A stretch of 17,324 bases of DNA from a virus (taxonomy: Duplodnaviria > Heunggongvirae > Uroviricota > Caudoviricetes): the IMG/VR virus record IMGVR_UViG_2693429706_000005. One strand, given 5' to 3'. Made by a program: the position numbers and the translations under genes. Below are positions 3,866 through 17,324 of this stretch, piece by piece; the stretch's first letter is position 1; each line of letters begins with the position of its first letter. The notes beneath the pieces are model-generated. The model made no database searches. It worked only from the letters and a program-made list of their open reading frames with translations, and was not told the origin of the DNA.

Positions 3866-5284
3866 ATGAAATATTTCTCAACTGGTTTTTATGTTTCAAA
3901 CTCCACATCTCTAGCTGAGATCTTTAATGAATGTTTTTCTTGGGTAAACGACTCACCACATACAACTTTTATTCCAGCACAATTAGTATGTGATTATAAA
4001 AGCGAGGAGTACTTCATAGAGTCTAAAAATGAAAGAATTGATATAATAACTTATAAAAACAAAGATACTAGTTTAGGCTGTTTTAGGTATTCGAAAATAT
4101 CTGAGCCACACAAATGGGTAACAGATATTTCAATTAATAAAAATCTCAAAACTGATACCATGTGGATTCAGGTGGAATCTAGCGTTGTAAGCCAAGATGC
4201 AGCTTATCTAGCCCCGCAACCTAAGAAACCATTAGTTGTTATGAGATTGATTGATAAATTTTCTGGTGGTCTTGATGATATTTTCAAGGTGTCAGTCGAA
4301 CCTCATTCCTTAGATGATACTGATGAACATTTAAATATAGCAGCTAAAGTTATAAATGGTGAAACTGACAACAGACTACCAATAATATACGTTAGCTCCA
4401 AGTATTTTTTTAATGAACATGCTCACAATATCATCCCAGAACGCCTTGCAAGAAAGGTATGCGGATTAGCACATGTATTAATTGAGCCTAGCAATAGACT
4501 ATTTTCTATTAAGCTAAAAAATGAGACAAATGCTAAAAATGCCTATGCTGGTGCTGTTGGTATCTATTGGCCACGGGGTCAAAATATCAGTTTTTATCGC
4601 CGTGGTGAGAAAACCGCAAAAGAATTTGAAGATGAGTTATTTGATGATGTTGTAAGAGCTACGACTACAATGGCTCCTGTCTCAGATAGTGGATGGAGTG
4701 AGATACAAACCAGAAAAACGAAAGACTCTATTAACTCACTCAAAGAAAGAGGAGAATACACACGCGAACTGATGGCGCTTTACGAAGCCGATAATGTTGC
4801 GAAAGATGACCAAATAGAAGATCTTAAGCATAAGATCTCCTCTTTAGAGCACAGAGTACGCACTCTTCAATCACAAGCTTCAGCCCAAGGAAGCATTGTG
4901 CTTAATGCTGGTGAAGAGACTGATTTTTTTGATGGAGAAATCAAAAATATAATTATTGACGCACTAAAAACTGCCATAAAAAATAAAAATGAATTTGGTA
5001 GAAGCTACCATATCTTATCATCCCTAATTGCCAATAATGAATACAATAAAGAAACCGAGAGTCGCCGCCAATTACTTAAAAGGACTTTAACAGGTTACAG
5101 AAGCATGGATAGCGCAACACAAAGAAATTTAAAGGACTTAGGTTTCAGTGCGTCAAGCGATGGAAAACACTGGAAGTTAACATATAATGAAGACCCTCGA
5201 TATTCCTATATTTTACCTAAAACAGGAAGTGACCACAGAGGTTCTTTAAATGCTATCTCGGATATAGCAAACATTATTTTCTAA
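3866..5284 (+). CDS. Hypothetical 472-aa protein in an AT-rich island, family not recognised; candidate defence/moron gene
   Basis: Long uninterrupted ORF with AAGGA RBS 6 nt before the ATG; strongly AT-rich versus flanking phage genes; opposite strand to the surrounding early-right operon; central heptad-like stretch (…RELMALYEADNVAKDDQIEDLKHKISSLEHRVRTLQSQ…); no motif I can assign. Confidence 0.7.
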   Translation: MKYFSTGFYVSNSTSLAEIFNECFSWVNDSPHTTFIPAQLVCDYKSEEYFIESKNERIDIITYKNKDTSLGCFRYSKISEPHKWVTDISINKNLKTDTMWIQVESSVVSQDAAYLAPQPKKPLVVMRLIDKFSGGLDDIFKVSVEPHSLDDTDEHLNIAAKVINGETDNRLPIIYVSSKYFFNEHAHNIIPERLARKVCGLAHVLIEPSNRLFSIKLKNETNAKNAYAGAVGIYWPRGQNISFYRRGEKTAKEFEDELFDDVVRATTTMAPVSDSGWSEIQTRKTKDSINSLKERGEYTRELMALYEADNVAKDDQIEDLKHKISSLEHRVRTLQSQASAQGSIVLNAGEETDFFDGEIKNIIIDALKTAIKNKNEFGRSYHILSSLIANNEYNKETESRRQLLKRTLTGYRSMDSATQRNLKDLGFSASSDGKHWKLTYNEDPRYSYILPKTGSDHRGSLNAISDIANIIF

Positions 5285-8261: not shown

Positions 8262-8492
8262 TTAAGCTGCGTTCTTTTCGGTGTGTGGAAACAACTTCGG
8301 AAGATCCGGGCGAATCTGGTATGCCTTCACAACTCCACCAGTAGCCGTAACAATGCTGCCGACATGTTCAGGGGATACCTTTGCTTTGTTGTGAAGCCAC
8401 TTATAGACGGCCTGCTGTGAAACTTCGCAGGCATCGCCTAGTTTCTTTTGTGAACCAACGATATTGATCGCTGTTTTGATTGCTGGGTTCAT
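8262..8492 (-). CDS. Cro-like / YdaS-like HTH regulator (76 aa)
   Basis: Small HTH protein (…GSQKKLGDACEVSQQAVYKWLHNK…) transcribed divergently from the repressor gene; GGAGG RBS before the ATG at 8490-8492. Confidence 0.75.
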   Translation of the reverse strand: MNPAIKTAINIVGSQKKLGDACEVSQQAVYKWLHNKAKVSPEHVGSIVTATGGVVKAYQIRPDLPKLFPHTEKNAA

Positions 8493-8596
8493 AACAACCT
8501 CCGTGGTTAATCCGAATAAAGATTAAAACTATGGTTGTTTTTAGTCAACAACCATTTTCGTTTGATGAAATAAAACCTTGGTTGTACATTTGATCT
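8493..8596. promoter_or_regulatory. OR-like divergent promoter/operator region (pR leftward, pRM rightward)
   Basis: Inverted repeat atggttgtt…aacaaccat (8531-8555); -35 TTGACT on the minus strand (complement of 8543-8548) for the cro side; -35 TTGATG (8562-8567), 17-bp spacer, -10 TACATT (8585-8590) ending 6 nt before the repressor ATG, suggesting a leaderless repressor mRNA as in lambda pRM. Confidence 0.6.
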
Positions 8597-9286
8597 ATGA
8601 AAACAACACTCTCAGAAAGACTTAAAGAAGCCAGATTAGCGCGAGGCCTTACACAAAAGGCGCTTGGGGATTTGGTCGGGGTTAGCCAGGCTGCTATTCA
8701 GAAAATCGAAACAGGGAAAGCTAACCAAACAACTAAAATCGTGGAGATCGCGAACGCTTTGGGTGTGCGCGCAGAATGGTTATCTTCTGGCGTTGGAAAT
8801 ATGTCAGACAGTACAGTGCAACCAATACAATCAACTGTCAGCCATTCCAAATACTTCAAAATTGACGTTCTTGATATAGAAGTCAGTGCCGGGCCAGGTG
8901 TAATCAACCGTGAGTTTGTAGAAGTTCTACGCTCGGTTGAGTACTCGTTTGACGATGCTCGTCACATGTTCGATGGCAGGAAGGCGGAAAATATCCGCAT
9001 CATTAACGTGCGAGGTGACAGCATGTCAGGGACGATCGAACCAGGTGACCTGCTGTTCGTTGATATCACTGTTAAATCTTTCGACGGTGATGGCATCTAT
9101 GCGTTTCTGTACGACGACACTGCCCATGTAAAACGTCTTCAAATGATGAAGGATAAGCTGCTGGTTATCTCTGATAACAAGAGCTACTCGCCGTGGGACC
9201 CGATCGAGAAAGACGAGATGAACCGGGTGTTCATATTCGGTAAGGTCATTGGAAGCATGCCGCAGACGTACAGGAAGCATGGTTAA
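8597..9286 (+). CDS. CI-type prophage repressor (N-terminal HTH, C-terminal LexA-like S24 autopeptidase), 229 aa
   Basis: N-terminus LTQKALGDLVGVSQAAIQKIETGK (HTH); C-terminal domain with GDSM serine motif and a downstream Lys (…HVKRLQ…), typical of RecA-stimulated self-cleaving repressors. Not lambda cI by sequence. Confidence 0.9.
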   Translation: MKTTLSERLKEARLARGLTQKALGDLVGVSQAAIQKIETGKANQTTKIVEIANALGVRAEWLSSGVGNMSDSTVQPIQSTVSHSKYFKIDVLDIEVSAGPGVINREFVEVLRSVEYSFDDARHMFDGRKAENIRIINVRGDSMSGTIEPGDLLFVDITVKSFDGDGIYAFLYDDTAHVKRLQMMKDKLLVISDNKSYSPWDPIEKDEMNRVFIFGKVIGSMPQTYRKHG

Positions 9287-9515
9287 TTTATCTACGACTT
9301 AAGGGAGCGAAGGTTAAGGTTTATACCACTCGGATTAGATATTGCACTAAATTCTCTATAAGAACGCCAAATCTGTTTGCATATTTCAGTAAATATTCTC
9401 GTTGTTAGCTGAGATTTGTTGCTACTGTCAGCAAAATGTCCCCCTATCTCGTAGCGGTTTTTATTTCGAATCATTATGTTAAGATGTTTCTGATTATAAT
9501 GAATGGAAACATAAA

Positions 9516-9896
9516 ATGAGAAAAATCCTAATCGCTGCCATGATGGCATCTGTATTGGCTGGGTGTGCTTCTTCAGGCAACCAGCAACTCAAAAATGAAA
9601 CTGAAATTAGTGTCCAGTCTAAACTTCAGGAAGGTAAAACAACCAAGAATGAGGTTAAATCTTACTTTGGTTCTCCTGATGCTGTTTCATATACTGACAG
9701 TGGAAACGAGATCTGGAAGTACGCCTTTGCAAAAGTAAAAGTTAATGGCACCACTTTTATTCCATTCTATGGATTATTCCATAATGGAACGAACGGTACG
9801 AAAAAAGAACTTACTATTCTTTTTAACGATGACACGATTAAGAAATACACAATGTCAGAAACCCAAATAAACTCGAAATCAGGTTGGGCTGACTGA
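9516..9896 (+). CDS. Predicted outer-membrane lipoprotein (126 aa), possibly SmpA/OmlA (BamE-like) fold, in the rex position
   Basis: Signal peptide MRKILIAAMMASVLAGC with lipobox LAGC and Ala at +2; pattern T..EV..YFGSPD…EIWKY.F resembles the BamE/SmpA-OmlA motif; AT-rich; consensus -10 TATAAT at 9495-9500; terminator follows. Confidence 0.7.
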   Translation: MRKILIAAMMASVLAGCASSGNQQLKNETEISVQSKLQEGKTTKNEVKSYFGSPDAVSYTDSGNEIWKYAFAKVKVNGTTFIPFYGLFHNGTNGTKKELTILFNDDTIKKYTMSETQINSKSGWAD

Positions 9897-9904
9897 TAAT
9901 CATA

Positions 9905-9931
9905 CCCGGCAACCGCGCCGGGTTTTCTTTT
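9905..9931 (+). terminator. Rho-independent terminator after the lipoprotein gene
   Basis: cccggc (9905-9910), loop aaccgc, gccggg (9917-9922), then ttttctttt; starts 9 nt after the stop codon. Confidence 0.75.
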
Positions 9932-10039
9932 CCTCCCCCTCATAACTCATACCGTCCAAAAAACCACCACACCTCACTTCAGTTATCGCTATGCGATGCA
10001 AGTCACAAAATAAATCCATCCTAAATACAACCAGTTATA

Positions 10040-10100
10040 TTTAAAACAACCGACAAAACAACTTTTGTTGTTGACGATAAAACAACTATAGTTTTAAATT
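10040..10100 (+). promoter_or_regulatory. OL-like operator and pL-like promoter
   Basis: -35 TTGACG (10071-10076), 17-bp spacer, -10 TTAAAT (10094-10099); overlapping 10-bp palindrome aactatagtt (10084-10093), which recurs with one mismatch in the OR region (aactatggtt, 8527-8536); aacaac half-site motifs repeated. Confidence 0.55.
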
Positions 10101-10104
10101 AAAT

Positions 10105-10156
10105 TCATCGCAACGACACAACGATACGGTAACCACCTGTTTCACCGTTGCGATGA
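10105..10156 (+). promoter_or_regulatory. Structured leader: 11-bp inverted repeat enclosing 30 nt, just downstream of the pL-like promoter
   Basis: tcatcgcaacg (10105-10115) is the perfect reverse complement of cgttgcgatga (10146-10156); the intervening segment contains the ggtaacc palindrome; begins at about the predicted transcript start. Confidence 0.4.
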
Positions 10157-10377
10157 CCGCTTAGATCCGCAGTTTGAATTTCAGCAGGCTTCGGGGAGTG
10201 CGAGGGGTGAAACGGACGCGTGAACGTCGGTGTGACCAGCTGAAATCAACACAACACTTTATACCTCAGTCGCTTCAACGAGGCGGCTTAGTTATGACAA
10301 CCGGCGGCCATCCACCGCCTGAATACGCGCAGAAGTCTCTATATGTTCAGCAGCCCAGCTTACGGGCAGGAGTTTTT

Positions 10378-10584
10378 ATGGTTCATCAACATTACGGAAC
10401 GCAGACCGTTAATCGCGGTGCGGTCATGCCAGGAATGCTGGTCAAACACAAAGATGGTACCTGGACTGCATCAGCTAATTTACGCGGACGGCTTTATCTG
10501 CATCGCGGCATCGAGCGCACTTATACCCGTGATTTGCTCGTAGAAGTTTTTCTCGACGGACGCGGTAACGGCCTGAATCACTAA
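10378..10584 (+). CDS. Kil-like small protein (68 aa; KilR-like, possible cell-division inhibitor)
   Basis: ATG at 10378 with AGGAG RBS 5 nt upstream; product [65 protein letters not shown] resembles my recollection of Rac KilR (…HEGRTYIASAN…LYIRN…VFLGRDG…); first gene after the pL-like promoter. Confidence 0.5.
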
Positions 10585-13157: not shown

Positions 13158-13379
13158 ATGGCAGACATAATTGATTCAGCATCAGAAATTGAAGAATTAC
13201 AGCGCAACACAGCAATAAAAATGCGCCGCCTGAACCACCAGGCTATATCTGCCACTCATTGTTGTGAGTGTGGCGATCCGATAGATGAACGAAGACGACT
13301 GGCCGTTCAGGGTTGTCGGACTTGTGCCAGTTGCCAGCAAGATCTGGAGCTTATCAGTAAACAGAGAGGTTCGAAGTGA
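13158..13379 (+). CDS. TraR/DksA-family C4 zinc-finger protein (73 aa), lambda Orf73-like
   Basis: CCECGDPIDERRRLAVQGCRTCASCQ carries the C-x2-C…C-x2-C motif of TraR/DksA-type RNA-polymerase-binding proteins; position matches the lambda b-region TraR homologue. Confidence 0.7.
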   Translation: MADIIDSASEIEELQRNTAIKMRRLNHQAISATHCCECGDPIDERRRLAVQGCRTCASCQQDLELISKQRGSK

Positions 13380-13589: not shown

Positions 13590-14192
13590 TCATTCAGTAT
13601 CATCACGCGCGGTCTGTGCATATGTCACTACCGCACCTAATATATTAATTTTCTTTTCAACATAGATAATATTATCGTACTCATAATTGCCATACGGATA
13701 GCAAATGCGAATATTCTCATGTAGATCGGGGTCATCCACCTCAGCTCCAGAACAACTTTTTGAACTACCGGAAGTATACCGATACGGTGCAACGTAAGAC
13801 GATGTCTCTCCAGGCAAAAAATAAGTTAGTGTCGTAAGGGGTATAATCAGAAAAAATCCAGCAAATATGCACATCCCTGCATAAACCTTAAGGTATGCTG
13901 ACAGACTCTTCCAGCCGCTTTGTTTTACTATCCCCTTCTTAACCCAAAACAGAGATAACAGAAAAGCTATTCCCATGCTAAACAGAATGTAATAGTGGGA
14001 TATACTCTGATTAAGAAACGTGACCCTGTAGATATCTGCCCGCCACCAGAAGAAAAGGAAAATAAAGATCAGCCCTGAAACTGTCATGCAAATCAAATAA
14101 GGATACGAATCTTTTTTCATGTTTAGCGCCCATAAAATTTTTCCTGACCCGGACAAATTTACCATCCATTTTTTGCGCAGAAAATAGCTCAT
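13590..14192 (-). CDS. Hypothetical polytopic membrane protein (up to 200 aa; start uncertain), AT-rich island
   Basis: At least three strongly hydrophobic segments (LICMTVSGLIFIFLFFWW, YYILFSMGIAFLLSLFWV, VYAGMCIFAGFFLIIPLTTLTYFL) followed by a soluble C-terminal region of about 70 aa rich in Tyr, Ser and Cys; opposite strand to the surrounding early-left operon. Confidence 0.55.
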   Translation of the reverse strand: MSYFLRKKWMVNLSGSGKILWALNMKKDSYPYLICMTVSGLIFIFLFFWWRADIYRVTFLNQSISHYYILFSMGIAFLLSLFWVKKGIVKQSGWKSLSAYLKVYAGMCIFAGFFLIIPLTTLTYFLPGETSSYVAPYRYTSGSSKSCSGAEVDDPDLHENIRICYPYGNYEYDNIIYVEKKINILGAVVTYAQTARDDTE

Positions 14193-14639: not shown

Positions 14640-14858
14640 ATGTACTTGACACTTCAGGAGTGGAACGCTCGCCAGCGACGCCCAAGAAGCCTTGAAACAG
14701 TTCGTCGATGGGTGCGCGAATGCAGGATATTCCCTCCTCCGGTTAAGGATGGAAGAGAATATCTGTTCCACGAATCAGCGGTAAAGGTTGACTTAAATCG
14801 ACCAGTAACAGGTAGCCTTTTGAAGAGGATCAGAAATGGGAAGAAGGCGAAGTCATGA
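14640..14858 (+). CDS. xis: Excisionase Xis (72 aa)
   Basis: MYLTLQEWNARQRRPRSLETVRRWVRECRIFPPPVKDGREYLFHESAVKVDLNRPVTG... recalled as lambda Xis; overlaps the int start as in lambda. Confidence 0.95.
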   Translation: MYLTLQEWNARQRRPRSLETVRRWVRECRIFPPPVKDGREYLFHESAVKVDLNRPVTGSLLKRIRNGKKAKS

Positions 14859-15906
14859 GCGCCGGGATTTACCCCCTAACCTTTATATAAGAAACAATGG
14901 ATATTACTGCTACAGGGACCCAAGGACGGGTAAAGAGTTTGGATTAGGCCGAGACAGGCGAATCGCAATCACTGAAGCTATACAGGCCAACATTGAGTTA
15001 TTTTCAGGACACAAACACAAGCCTCTGACAGCGAGAATCAACAGTGATAATTCCGTTACGTTACATTCATGGCTTGATCGCTACGAAAAAATCCTGGCCA
15101 GCAGAGGAATCAAGCAGAAGACACTCATAAATTACATGAGCAAAATTAAAGCAATAAGGAGGGGTCTGCCTGATGCTCCACTTGAAGACATCACCACAAA
15201 AGAAATTGCGGCAATGCTCAATGGATACATAGACGAGGGCAAGGCGGCGTCAGCCAAGTTAATCAGATCAACACTGAGCGATGCATTCCGAGAGGCAATA
15301 GCTGAAGGCCATATAACAACAAACCCTGTCGCTGCCACTCGCGCAGCAAAATCAGAGGTAAGGAGATCAAGACTTACGGCTGACGAATACCTGAAAATTT
15401 ATCAAGCAGCAGAATCATCACCATGTTGGCTCAGACTTGCAATGGAACTGGCTGTTGTTACCGGGCAACGAGTTGGTGATTTATGCGAAATGAAGTGGTC
15501 TGATATCGTAGATGGATATCTTTATGTCGAGCAAAGCAAAACAGGCGTAAAAATTGCCATCCCAACAACATTGCATGTTGATGCTCTCGGGATATCAATG
15601 AAGGAAACACTTGATAAATGCAAAGAGATTCTTGGCGGAGAAACCATAATTGCATCTACTCGTCGCGAACCGCTTTCATCCGGCACAGTATCAAGGTATT
15701 TTATGCGCGCACGAAAAGCATCAGGTCTTTCCTTCGAAGGGGATCCGCCTACCTTTCACGAGTTGCGCAGTTTGTCTGCAAGACTCTATGAGAAGCAGAT
15801 AAGCGATAAGTTTGCTCAACATCTTCTCGGGCATAAGTCGGACACCATGGCATCACAGTATCGTGATGACAGAGGCAGGGAGTGGGACAAAATTGAAATC
15901 AAATAA
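14836..15906 (+). CDS. int: Tyrosine integrase Int (356 aa)
   Basis: MGRRRSHERRDLPPNLYIRNNGYYCYRDPRTGKEFGLGRDRRIAITEAIQ... recalled as lambda Int, full length; C-terminal catalytic region present (…HELRSLSARLYEKQ…LLGHKSDTMASQYRDD…). Confidence 0.95.
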   Translation: MGRRRSHERRDLPPNLYIRNNGYYCYRDPRTGKEFGLGRDRRIAITEAIQANIELFSGHKHKPLTARINSDNSVTLHSWLDRYEKILASRGIKQKTLINYMSKIKAIRRGLPDAPLEDITTKEIAAMLNGYIDEGKAASAKLIRSTLSDAFREAIAEGHITTNPVAATRAAKSEVRRSRLTADEYLKIYQAAESSPCWLRLAMELAVVTGQRVGDLCEMKWSDIVDGYLYVEQSKTGVKIAIPTTLHVDALGISMKETLDKCKEILGGETIIASTRREPLSSGTVSRYFMRARKASGLSFEGDPPTFHELRSLSARLYEKQISDKFAQHLLGHKSDTMASQYRDDRGREWDKIEIK

Positions 15907-15979
15907 TGATTTTATTTTGACTGATAGTGACCTGTTCGTTGCAACAAATTGATAAGCAATGCTTTTTTATAATGCCAAC

Positions 15980-15994
15980 TTAGTATAAAAAAGC
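15980..15994. other. Lambda attachment core (prophage-host junction, attL-type B-O-P')
   Basis: Reverse complement of 15980-15994 is gcttttttatactaa, the 15-bp lambda core; the int-proximal side (15903-15979) matches the phage P' arm as I recall it (…gttggcattataaaaaagcattgcttatcaatttgttgcaacgaacaggtcactatcagtcaaaataaaatcatt…) and the ybhC side is the bacterial arm. Confidence 0.85.
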
Positions 15995-16040
15995 AGGCTT
16001 CAACGGATTCATTTTTCTATTTCATAGCCCGGAGCAACCT

Positions 16041-17324
16041 GTGAACACATTTTCAGTTTCCCGTCTGGCGCTGGCATTGGCTTTTGGCGTGACGCTGACC
16101 GCCTGTAGCTCAACCCCGCCCGATCAACGTCCTTCTGATCAAACCGCGCCTGGTACCTCTTCTCGCCCGATTCTGTCGGCAAAAGAAGCGCAGAATTTCG
16201 ATGCTCAACACTATTTTGCATCCCTGACACCAGGTGCTGCAGCGTGGAATCCTTCCCCGATTACCCTGCCTGCGCAACCTGACTTTGTTGTCGGCCCGGC
16301 GGGCACTCAAGGTGTAACGCATACCACGATTCAGGCGGCGGTAGATGCGGCAATTATCAAGCGTACCAACAAGCGCCAGTATATTGCCGTGATGCCTGGT
16401 GAGTATCAGGGAACGGTATATGTCCCTGCCGCTCCGGGTGGAATTACTCTGTACGGTACAGGTGAAAAACCGATTGATGTGAAGATTGGGCTTTCCCTTG
16501 ATGGTGGCATGAGCCCTGCCGACTGGCGTCACGACGTCAACCCGCGCGGCAAATATATGCCAGGTAAACCAGCGTGGTATATGTACGATAGCTGCCAGAG
16601 CAAACGCAGCGACAGTATCGGTGTTCTCTGCTCTGCGGTCTTCTGGTCACAAAACAATGGCCTGCAACTGCAAAATCTGACCATCGAAAACACGCTGGGC
16701 GATAGCGTAGATGCAGGTAACCATCCGGCGGTGGCACTGCGTACTGATGGTGACCAGGTACAGATTAACAACGTTAACATTCTCGGTCGTCAGAACACCT
16801 TCTTTGTCACCAACAGCGGTGTGCAGAACCGTCTGGAAACGAATCGTCAGCCGCGTACGCTGGTGACCAACAGCTACATTGAAGGGGATGTGGATATCGT
16901 TTCTGGTCGCGGCGCAGTGGTGTTCGATAACACCGAATTCCGCGTGGTGAACTCACGTACTCAGCAAGAAGCGTATGTGTTTGCACCGGCTACGCTGTCC
17001 AACATTTACTACGGTTTCCTCGCCGTAAACAGCCGTTTCAATGCTTTCGGTGATGGTGTGGCGCAACTGGGCCGCTCGCTGGATGTTGATGCCAATACCA
17101 ACGGTCAGGTGGTGATCCGTGATAGCGCCATCAACGAAGGTTTTAACACGGCTAAACCGTGGGCCGATGCGGTGATCTCTAATCGTCCGTTTGCGGGTAA
17201 TACCGGCAGCGTAGATGATAACGACGAAATACAGCGCAATCTGAATGACACTAACTACAACCGCATGTGGGAATACAATAACCGCGGCGTGGGTAGTAAA
17301 GTGGTTGCAGAGGCGAAGAAGTAA
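16041..17324 (+). CDS. ybhC: YbhC, outer-membrane lipoprotein of the pectinesterase-like family (427 aa)
   Basis: GTG start; signal peptide with lipobox LTAC; recognised as E. coli YbhC, the gene flanking attB-lambda on the gal side; TAA stop at the window end. Confidence 0.88.
   Translation: MNTFSVSRLALALAFGVTLTACSSTPPDQRPSDQTAPGTSSRPILSAKEAQNFDAQHYFASLTPGAAAWNPSPITLPAQPDFVVGPAGTQGVTHTTIQAAVDAAIIKRTNKRQYIAVMPGEYQGTVYVPAAPGGITLYGTGEKPIDVKIGLSLDGGMSPADWRHDVNPRGKYMPGKPAWYMYDSCQSKRSDSIGVLCSAVFWSQNNGLQLQNLTIENTLGDSVDAGNHPAVALRTDGDQVQINNVNILGRQNTFFVTNSGVQNRLETNRQPRTLVTNSYIEGDVDIVSGRGAVVFDNTEFRVVNSRTQQEAYVFAPATLSNIYYGFLAVNSRFNAFGDGVAQLGRSLDVDANTNGQVVIRDSAINEGFNTAKPWADAVISNRPFAGNTGSVDDNDEIQRNLNDTNYNRMWEYNNRGVGSKVVAEAKK

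Follow-up and report, generated by a model that had tools for sequence, protein, structure and literature searches.

A predicted BamE-fold lipoprotein encoded behind the repressor gene of a lambda-like prophage: exchangeable cargo and candidate superinfection-exclusion factor

The slot between cI and the PL-like region carries a lipoprotein gene

The DNA analyzed here is a stretch of 17,324 nt from the IMG/VR virus record IMGVR_UViG_2693429706_000005 (the window), which for the most part represents the early region of a lambda-like prophage of E. coli. Its cI-type repressor gene is followed on the same strand by a gene for a predicted lipoprotein of 126 amino acids (aa), which is the subject of this study. 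An initial annotation, made from the sequence alone, had described it as a lipoprotein moron in the rexAB position; the open reading frame (ORF), the TATAAT hexamer and the terminator that it listed are all present. The features of the locus are:

8597-9286, plus strand: cI-type repressor of 229 aa with HTH_3 and Peptidase_S24 domains
9288-9903, plus strand: AT-rich, replaceable cargo segment (moron), bounded by homology breakpoints
9288-9476, plus strand: spacer from the cI stop codon to the promoter-like element, with relatives only in a near-identical E. coli set
9477-9485, plus strand: extended -10-like element TGTTAAGAT with the hexamer TAAGAT at 9480-9485, conserved and travelling with the gene
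9495-9500, plus strand: TATAAT of the initial annotation, ending 15 nt before the ATG, not conserved
9505-9512, plus strand: ribosome-binding region GGAAACAT with the Shine-Dalgarno (SD)-like GGAA at 9505-9508, 7 nt before the ATG
9516-9896, plus strand: lipoprotein gene, 126 aa
9904-9933, plus strand: intrinsic terminator, a hairpin at 9904-9923 followed by TTTCTTTT
10045-10100, plus strand: OL/PL-like region with four AACAAC/GTTGTT half-sites (cluster at 10045-10086) and TTGACG-18-TAAATT

The location of the lipoprotein gene between cI and the OL/PL operator cluster, on the cI strand, places it in the rexAB position. Escherichia phage PhiR26_1 (PV340555.1), a lambda-type siphovirus with the isolation host MG1655, matches the region 9287-9960 with 100% identity. 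In this phage the ORF likewise lies between cI and Kil and is labelled 'hypothetical protein / putative lipoprotein'.

Comparison with other prophages that carry essentially the same cI demonstrated that the gene is a moron-type add-on, as had been claimed, because these prophages contain other cargo at this place. The prophage of strain MB20 shares 96-97% identity with the window in its flanks (cro, cI and kil-gam-bet), and the blastn homology ends at 9287, one base past the cI stop codon, and returns at 9904. The MB20 slot is filled with two genes matching the A and B components of the candidate defence system PDC-M63 (1e-42 and 4e-42; locus L006, 1591-2993). Strain JS01, the best overall match to the window, encodes a 303-aa BstA protein in the slot (PADLOC 7e-122; locus L122, 7241-8152). 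In Salmonella phage S107, cI is followed by BstA (9e-100), a small ORF, the lipoprotein (82% identical) and N (locus L117, 2489-3881). MB20, JS01 and S107, whose backbones are the same as or similar to that of the window, form an allelic series at one hot spot. BstA is a proven abortive-infection protein that sits downstream of a prophage repressor, and the region from cI to N is a known hot spot of mosaic diversity (PMC8585504). The described AT-richness of the cargo was also evident, with a GC content of 0.36-0.37 over positions 9301-9900 compared to 0.44-0.47 in cI and approx. 0.52 in the recombination genes.

Several other ORFs were noticed in this slot. Three Cronobacter prophages (L034-L036, 4039-4902) encode a 287-aa NYN-domain protein between cI and the lipoprotein gene. 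It occurs together with different repressors, gave a weak match to the PADLOC model HEC-09 (1.7e-4) and may be a nuclease-type defence candidate. Most relatives in the immunity slot possess a conserved ORF of 63-75 aa on the opposite strand after the lipoprotein gene and before N or kil (for example L003 8413-8619, L034 5420-5611 and L117 3923-4150, all on the minus strand), which had no PADLOC match and is absent from the window. A relationship between the 303-aa cargo of JS01 and a 302-aa ORF preceding the lipoprotein gene in Citrobacter prophages was rejected, as the two are unrelated. An antisense ORF of the window (9292-9549) had no family match in Pfam.

The gene is under selection and encodes a predicted outer-membrane lipoprotein

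The ATG at 9516 is the first start codon after a stop codon, and the deduced product begins with MRKILIAAMMASVLAG followed by CASSGNQQ. Residues 1-16 constitute a signal peptide with a positively charged N-terminus (MRK), a hydrophobic core (ILIAAMMASV) and the residues LAG, which precede Cys17 and the residues ASS. The lipobox L-A-G-C predicts lipidation of Cys17 (codon 9564-9566), with alanine at position +2, and leaves a mature lipoprotein of 109 residues. Cys17 was invariant across 106 diverse relatives. By the established sorting rule, lipoproteins that lack aspartate at position +2 are localized to the outer membrane. On the basis of this rule and the lipobox, the Lol pathway is predicted to anchor the protein on the periplasmic side of the outer membrane, in its inner leaflet. 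The outer-membrane lipoprotein of the initial annotation is thus borne out at the level of prediction.

The protein matched PHROG 3135 ('unknown function') from end to end (E=2.9e-48). Its 228 close relatives come from Escherichia, Citrobacter, Enterobacter, Cronobacter, Leclercia, Kluyvera and Phytobacter, and a profile search retrieved 1788 remote cluster representatives at E<=1e-3. The exact sequence is present on at least 1000 contigs. Among 5426 complete E. coli genomes, 69 carry the gene, always as the same cargo in a prophage immunity region; it is not a housekeeping orthologue. The ratio of nonsynonymous to synonymous substitution rates (dN/dS) had a median of 0.043 and a maximum of 0.133 in 454 pairs from 70 distinct coding sequences of 378 nt, and synonymous sites were saturated between the window copy and relatives of about 80% identity.

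AT-rich DNA readily yields ORFs, and the only Pfam match of the protein lies below threshold. A decaying or chance ORF with a misleading lipoprotein-like N-terminus is nevertheless hardly conceivable and is already refuted by the conservation pattern: the low dN/dS at saturated synonymous sites, the wide occurrence of the exact protein, the many remote relatives with the invariant lipobox cysteine and the confident fold prediction described below. The substitution pattern shows 9516-9896 to behave as a functional accessory gene under selection.

The mature domain is modelled as a BamE fold

The likeness to BamE/SmpA-OmlA proteins suggested by the initial annotation was found in both sequence and structure comparisons. 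The sole domain-level Pfam match of the lipoprotein is BamE (PF04355), with 21.8 bits just below the gathering cut-off of 23.2 bits, and 88 of the 106 family members match this model (best 4e-9). An AlphaFold model computed from the 106 diverse sequences reached a mean predicted local distance difference test score (pLDDT) of 83, with values above 90 in the core, and superseded an earlier model from 20 close homologues (pLDDT 63.5). Foldseek comparison with the Protein Data Bank (PDB) returned BamE chains only as top matches (probability 1.0), and the best matches among viral models were SmpA/OmlA lipoproteins of Pseudomonas phages. BLIP, BtiO and OsmE are structural neighbours that share the fold. 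According to the model, the mature domain adopts the BamE/BLIP/OsmE (SmpA/OmlA) fold, a small protein-binding scaffold.

Two central strands (residues 65-76 and 90-104) are much longer than in BamE and form a long beta-hairpin. The hairpin loop, residues 77-89 (NGTTFIPFYGLFH), is highly conserved and has an aromatic tip, FIPFYG, in which FIP is found at the majority level and P83 in at least 90% of the family. Model confidence is low in this loop. Such a combination of conservation and low confidence would be typical of a binding loop. BamE lacks both the long hairpin and the FIPFYG loop. Moreover, the family profile scored only E=0.04 against BamE chains of the PDB, structural alignments gave 19-22% identity, and the N-terminal RPDINQGNY segment of BamE paired with unrelated residues in the profile alignment.

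E. coli possesses its own chromosomal bamE. As the lipoprotein gene is present in only 69 of the 5426 genomes in addition, its product is a BamE-fold paralogue rather than a BamE orthologue. Database entries label the protein as 'hypothetical', 'BamE' or PHROG 3135, annotation pipelines also name it 'outer membrane protein assembly factor BamE' or 'BamD', and one record of the Prokaryotic Genome Annotation Pipeline (PGAP) for an identical E. coli copy reads 'SEN1984 family lipoprotein'. The names BamE and BamD are an over-annotation by domain-level transfer. NCBIfam gave weak matches to assorted lipoproteins at the level of the signal peptide only, with neither a BamE match nor a model named 'SEN1984', and a single-sequence phmmer search against PDB sequences found only a signal-peptide match to apolipoprotein E.

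A putative extended -10 promoter travels with the gene

To assess expression signals, the upstream flanks of copies from different genomic slots were compared. They are unrelated until a block that starts about 40 nt before the ATG. Of 61 distinct upstream sequences, 49 contain TGnTA(A/G)GAT at the start of this block, at a distance of 30-35 nt from the ATG. Positions -12T, -11A and -7T of the element are invariant and the TG is kept in 42-44 of the 49 sequences, while the hexamer occurs as TAAGAT, TAGGAT, TACGAT, TACCAT or TAAAAT. This conservation pattern fits the expectation for an extended -10 promoter, and TGTTAAGAT at 9477-9485 is a putative promoter of this type, which would not need a good -35 region. 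Transcription is predicted to start at about 9492-9493 and to yield a leader of about 24 nt carrying the GGAA.

In the initial annotation the TATAAT at 9495-9500 had been taken as the -10 region of the gene. The hexamer is not conserved; relatives show TGCAAT, TGTAAT or CAATAC at this position. A transcript started from it would have a leader of only about 9 nt and miss the GGAA of the ribosome binding site. For both reasons TATAAT is probably not the working element and is a less likely promoter than TGTTAAGAT. A sigma-E promoter (GAACTT-N16-TCTGA), prompted by a conserved TCTGA, was considered and rejected because its -35 region is not conserved between slots.

Read-through from cI offers a second route. 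A terminator-like site was looked for in the spacer at 9288-9476 and none was seen, so that both routes of lysogenic expression are possible in the window. In a subgroup of relatives (e.g. L008, L009 and L061-L067) the promoter-like element is missing and the lipoprotein gene follows 48 nt past the cI stop codon; here it is presumably co-transcribed with cI. A terminator-like site just before the promoter-like element was present in 22 of 62 distinct upstream flanks.

An inverted repeat reaches from the promoter-like element to the ribosome binding site, with a 5' arm ATGTTTC at 9484-9490 and a 3' arm GAAACAT at 9506-9512 that covers the ribosome binding site. It would mask the SD sequence in RNA that enters by read-through, be it from cI or, in relatives, from the tail operon, and leave it free in RNA started at 9492. 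When the SD-sequestering hairpin was folded in 24 relatives and compared with shuffled controls, it stood out (reached by <=6% of shuffles) in roughly one third of these mutually related sequences and did not stand out in the rest. An operator function of the repeat is an alternative explanation.

Downstream of the gene, a G+C-rich stem of 7 bp (arms ACCCGGC and GCCGGGT), a 6-nt loop (AACCGC) and a T-rich tail constitute the intrinsic terminator. Terminator-like sites were found within 110 nt of the stop codon in 50 of 65 distinct downstream flanks compared to 41 of 381 control segments. The gene had been credited with a terminator of its own. A hairpin does follow it, but the terminator at 9904 is common to prophages with other cargo and is therefore an element of the immunity-region backbone and not part of the cargo.

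Relatives recur in three genomic homes

The lipoprotein gene was positive on 136 IMG/VR contigs, of which 80 loci were fetched and classed by marker genes together with 24 species-representative genomes:

80 IMG/VR loci: 54 after a cI-type repressor or in the immunity region, 23 in the tail module, 1 beside gtrAB, 2 other or unresolved
57 of these loci less than 98% identical to the window copy: 31 repressor/immunity, 23 tail, 1 gtrAB, 2 other or unresolved
24 species-representative genomes: 5 repressor/immunity, 8 tail, 1 gtr, 10 other or unresolved (mostly non-enteric)

Relatives of 80-95% identity occupy all three homes. The repressors adjoining the lipoprotein gene are of the S24 type, with 23-69% identity to the cI of the window, or of the Phage_CI_repr type. 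In the tail module, the lipoprotein gene is placed either between a DUF6246 chaperone-like gene and a TMP_3 tape-measure gene or immediately next to one of them, and approx. 29% of the fetched viral loci hold the lipoprotein in or next to the slot of HK97 gp15. The gene is located immediately before the tape-measure gene in Klebsiella phage vB_Kpn_RAH1. Distant relatives in Pseudomonas phages were found in the gap from tail chaperone to tape measure (PP9W2) and beside the integrase gene (Lodos).

Each of the three homes hosts known anti-phage functions: RexAB and BstA reside in the slot after cI, HK97 gp15 belongs to the tail module, and the gtr genes modify the O-antigen. HK97 gene 15, located in the chaperone-to-tape-measure gap, was the first gene to be named a moron, and its product, a proven superinfection-exclusion protein, prevents injection of the phage genome (PMC3594210). 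gtrABC is counted among the anti-superinfection systems expressed by the P22 prophage (PMC10883804).

The mature proteins are up to 95-96% identical in different slots, which argues for repeated hopping of the lipoprotein gene between temperate phages as a compact unit. One cluster at 90% identity comprised 23 immunity-slot, 3 tail-slot, 1 gtr-slot and 3 other copies. The mature protein is near-invariant across phages with different tails and immunity types.

Comparison with known phage systems

The lipoprotein gene shares its slot, the cI strand and a subsequent immunity-region terminator with rexA/rexB of lambda and bstA of BTP1. BstA is an alternative allele of the slot in same-cI prophages and is co-resident with the lipoprotein in S107 (PMC8585504). 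Pfam, PHROG and PADLOC revealed no homology of the lipoprotein to RexA, RexB or BstA, whereas the BstA model matches the JS01 and S107 cargo. Rex and BstA bring about abortive infection from the cytoplasm or the inner membrane. In contrast, the lipoprotein is predicted to be exported to the outer membrane, and any exclusion by it would therefore act at entry.

HK97 gp15 has its slot in common with the tail-module relatives, which form an independent unit with promoter-like element and terminator-like site; the window copy lies elsewhere. It is a small, YebO-like inner-membrane protein, and the lipoprotein had no gp15 or YebO match in Pfam or PHROG.

Cor of phi80, N15 and HK022, Llp of T5 and Lpp of mEpimmI phages are likewise small phage lipoproteins made in the infected or lysogenic cell; their outer-membrane location is predicted or demonstrated, and their genes often belong to the tail module (PMC3594210; PMC11893012). 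They inactivate FhuA, OmpA or LamB. The protein described here is larger, and its near-invariance across carriers agrees better with a shared target in host or phage than with a receptor specific to each carrier. Lipoproteins encoded in the structural clusters of mEpimmI coliphages exclude OmpA- or LamB-dependent phages (PMC11893012). T5 Llp is a FhuA-binding protein located in the inner leaflet of the outer membrane (preprint 10.64898/2026.03.26.714494).

Bor of lambda (Iss family) is likewise an outer-membrane lipoprotein moron expressed from the prophage, and bor is also present in PhiR26_1. It differs by its slot near the lysis genes and its fold family and had no sequence match to the lipoprotein. 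Sequence or fold homology to Cor, Llp, Bor or TraT was looked for and not found. SEN1984, a 125-aa lipoprotein predicted to be BamE-like by Phyre2 (PMC10655114), belongs to the same family according to the PGAP name of the identical E. coli copy. It is encoded in ROD21, an excisable and mobilisable island, in contrast to the prophage location of the window copy.

Proposed function and alternative explanations

The comparative context makes exclusion appear more plausible than the sequence alone would. The gene is an alternative cargo of a slot used by defence genes, it recurs in three homes, and there is a precedent of small lipoproteins that block phage entry. On these grounds it is quite possible, though short of probable, that the product is an envelope-acting superinfection-exclusion lipoprotein expressed in the lysogen. 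Transcription would start at the gene's own extended -10 promoter, come from read-through of the cI transcript, or both, and would end at the immunity-region terminator. The lipoprotein would act as exclusion or defence factor at the periplasmic face of the outer membrane, bind either a conserved host outer-membrane component used in phage entry or the tape-measure or ejection proteins of the incoming phage, and block DNA entry after, or independently of, adsorption. Its logic would resemble that of T5 Llp, Cor, HK97 gp15 and Ltp, to which the protein family is unrelated. The near-invariance of the mature protein across its carriers favours a conserved target, which could be a host component of outer membrane or periplasm or a conserved feature of tape-measure or ejection proteins, over a carrier-specific receptor.

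Several points weigh against this proposal. The association with particular slots is guilt by association. Llp and Cor are thought to be tuned to the receptor-binding protein of their own carrier, and a near-invariant protein cannot be tuned in this way to each carrier's receptor-binding protein. Pfam, PHROG and Foldseek searches for similarity in sequence or fold to proven exclusion lipoproteins returned the BamE fold and none of these proteins. PADLOC had no match and contains no model for the family. Our literature searches found no functional, experimental or transcriptomic study of the lipoprotein family. PhiR26_1, which carries the identical gene, also contains morons that serve the envelope in ways other than defence (Bor, Lom, a porin and an omptin). 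Furthermore, the family occurs outside phages and at great distance from Enterobacterales, in metagenome-assembled genomes of Nitrospirae, delta- and zetaproteobacteria in unrelated neighbourhoods, and SEN1984 resides in the non-phage island ROD21 of Salmonella Enteritidis (PMC10655114). This distribution speaks for a broader function in the envelope. A scan of the genes around non-enteric homologues revealed no conserved partner; the neighbours were NMO, PilZ, antitoxin, sulfite reductase, YidC and replicase/relaxase genes.

A prophage lipoprotein moron in a lysogeny-expressed slot is of a familiar kind. That one family turns up repeatedly at the BstA/Rex site, at the gp15 site and near gtr is a new observation. 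There is a more far-reaching version of the exclusion proposal, which we regard as rather doubtful: the gene could be the founding example of a new and widespread family of BamE-fold exclusion lipoproteins that is shuttled between three exclusion slots and, in view of its near-invariance, acts on a conserved step of entry. Rather than plugging a single receptor, such proteins would intercept the tape-measure or ejection complex in the periplasm or act via a conserved outer-membrane machine such as BAM. Their carriers would include temperate Enterobacterales phages and, at a greater distance, Pseudomonas phages, an extent that is put forward with the same reserve.

A different explanation is a lysogenic-conversion factor for envelope fitness or virulence in the manner of Bor or Lom with no effect on phages. 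We consider this unlikely, yet worth serious attention. Resistance to complement or antimicrobial peptides, tolerance of stress, adhesion or vesiculation could be the property conferred. PhiR26_1 has several such envelope morons, including an OmpD-like porin, and a family member is located in the pathogenicity island ROD21. The family is broad and also chromosomal, the stress lipoprotein OsmE is among its structural neighbours, and near-invariance across carrier phages would suit a role of this kind. On the other hand, the three recurrent slots are those of the anti-phage functions BstA/RexAB, HK97 gp15 and gtr (PMC8585504; PMC3594210), and no phenotype has been reported for SEN1984 itself. 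The two functions are also compatible, since Cor protects against colicin M as well (PMC3594210).

Two other readings were considered. As a BamE surrogate or modulator of the BAM complex, the protein would dock on BamA/BamD in place of or beside host BamE. Altered outer membrane protein (OMP) assembly or BamA conformation, changed receptor display or RcsF signalling, or a block of BamA-dependent phages or toxins might be the outcome. The frequent Pfam BamE matches within the family and a predicted location identical to that of BamE speak for this role. It seems improbable in view of the marginal sequence similarity (bit score, profile E-value and identity given above), the mispaired RPDINQGNY segment and the added hairpin and conserved loop; moreover, BLIP, BtiO and OsmE use this fold for unrelated binding purposes. 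A periplasmic inhibitor or immunity protein on a BLIP/BtiO-type scaffold would instead neutralize a periplasm-acting enzyme or toxin; candidate targets include a peptidoglycan hydrolase, a domain of a colicin or bacteriocin, an effector of type VI secretion (T6SS) or contact-dependent inhibition (CDI), or a wall-degrading domain of phage tape-measure or ejection proteins. The conserved, low-confidence loop 77-89 resembles a binding loop that becomes ordered on its partner, and the gene repeatedly adjoins tape-measure genes. We hold this possibility to be quite improbable.

Prophage envelope proteins decide on phage entry into the lysogen and hence matter for phage therapy, prophage competition and host fitness. 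The lipoprotein family is common, as illustrated by the contig counts given above, by isolated Salmonella and Klebsiella phages and by the distant relatives in Pseudomonas phages. If it acts in exclusion, the few known exclusion lipoproteins would gain a fourth structural class, and its near-invariance would point to a shared and possibly druggable step of phage DNA entry. If it modulates BAM or the envelope instead, its role in lysogenic conversion would be a new one. In both cases the erroneous annotation as a BAM subunit merits correction.

Further features of the window

The remaining landmarks of the prophage are:

8262-8492, minus strand: cro/YdaS-type gene, divergent from cI
8493-8552, no strand assigned: OR-like operator cluster between cro and cI with AACAAC/GTTGTT half-sites and the palindrome ATGGTTGTT-N7-AACAACCAT
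10378-10584: kil, followed by gam, bet, exo and xis
14836-15906: int, after xis
16041-17324: host ybhC, to the end of the window

The prophage is integrated at the ybhC (att-lambda) side. The repressor at 8597-9286 matched the Pfam families HTH_3 (5.4e-13) and Peptidase_S24 (1.2e-18) and PHROG 4 'transcriptional repressor' (8.7e-73), and its counterpart in PhiR26_1 is labelled cI. The promoter-like site TTGACG-18-TAAATT at 10071-10100 is directed into kil-gam-bet-exo. Between it and kil (10100-10378) there is no N-like antiterminator gene. The leader of about 280 nt ahead of kil could form several stem-loops, and Rfam returned nothing for it at E<=1. In the annotation of PhiR26_1, 'Kil' is lengthened to 126 aa; the Kil PHROG matches only the C-terminal 68-77 residues, and PGAP annotates a kil product of 68 aa.

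A run of 10 N at 2109-2118 marks a scaffold joint. To its left (1-2108) lie host asnB (1-1665; Asn_synthase 8e-94) and a tRNA-Met fragment at 2052-2108, which scored 34.4 bits with the Rfam tRNA model and which ARAGORN did not call. On the right side of the joint the prophage begins abruptly at ylcG/rusA, with the late region outside the window. A rearrangement was rejected as explanation for the neighbourhood of asnB and prophage; owing to the scaffold joint, it is an assembly artefact. Apart from the tRNA fragment near this gap, Rfam gave no match in the whole window at gathering thresholds and only chance-level matches in 9250-10350 at E<=1, and ARAGORN called no tRNA.

Other morons were also apparent. 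An AT-rich ORF of 472 aa (GC 0.31-0.40; 3866-5284, plus strand) between a ybcN/NinB-like gene and ren is a second defence-type moron of the window; its PhiR26_1 counterpart is labelled as defence protein PD-lambda-1, and it gave a weak match to PADLOC HEC-07 (1e-9) and none to a Pfam domain. Another AT-rich ORF of 199 aa (GC 0.36-0.40; 13590-14192, minus strand), which had no Pfam match, is located between a TraR-like gene (13158-13379) and xis/int and may be a further moron near the attachment end. In PhiR26_1, the envelope morons encode an OmpD/NmpC-like porin (15616-16713), Bor (18489-18782), Lom (39522-40121) and an omptin protease (46781-47734), and this prophage remodels the outer membrane extensively.

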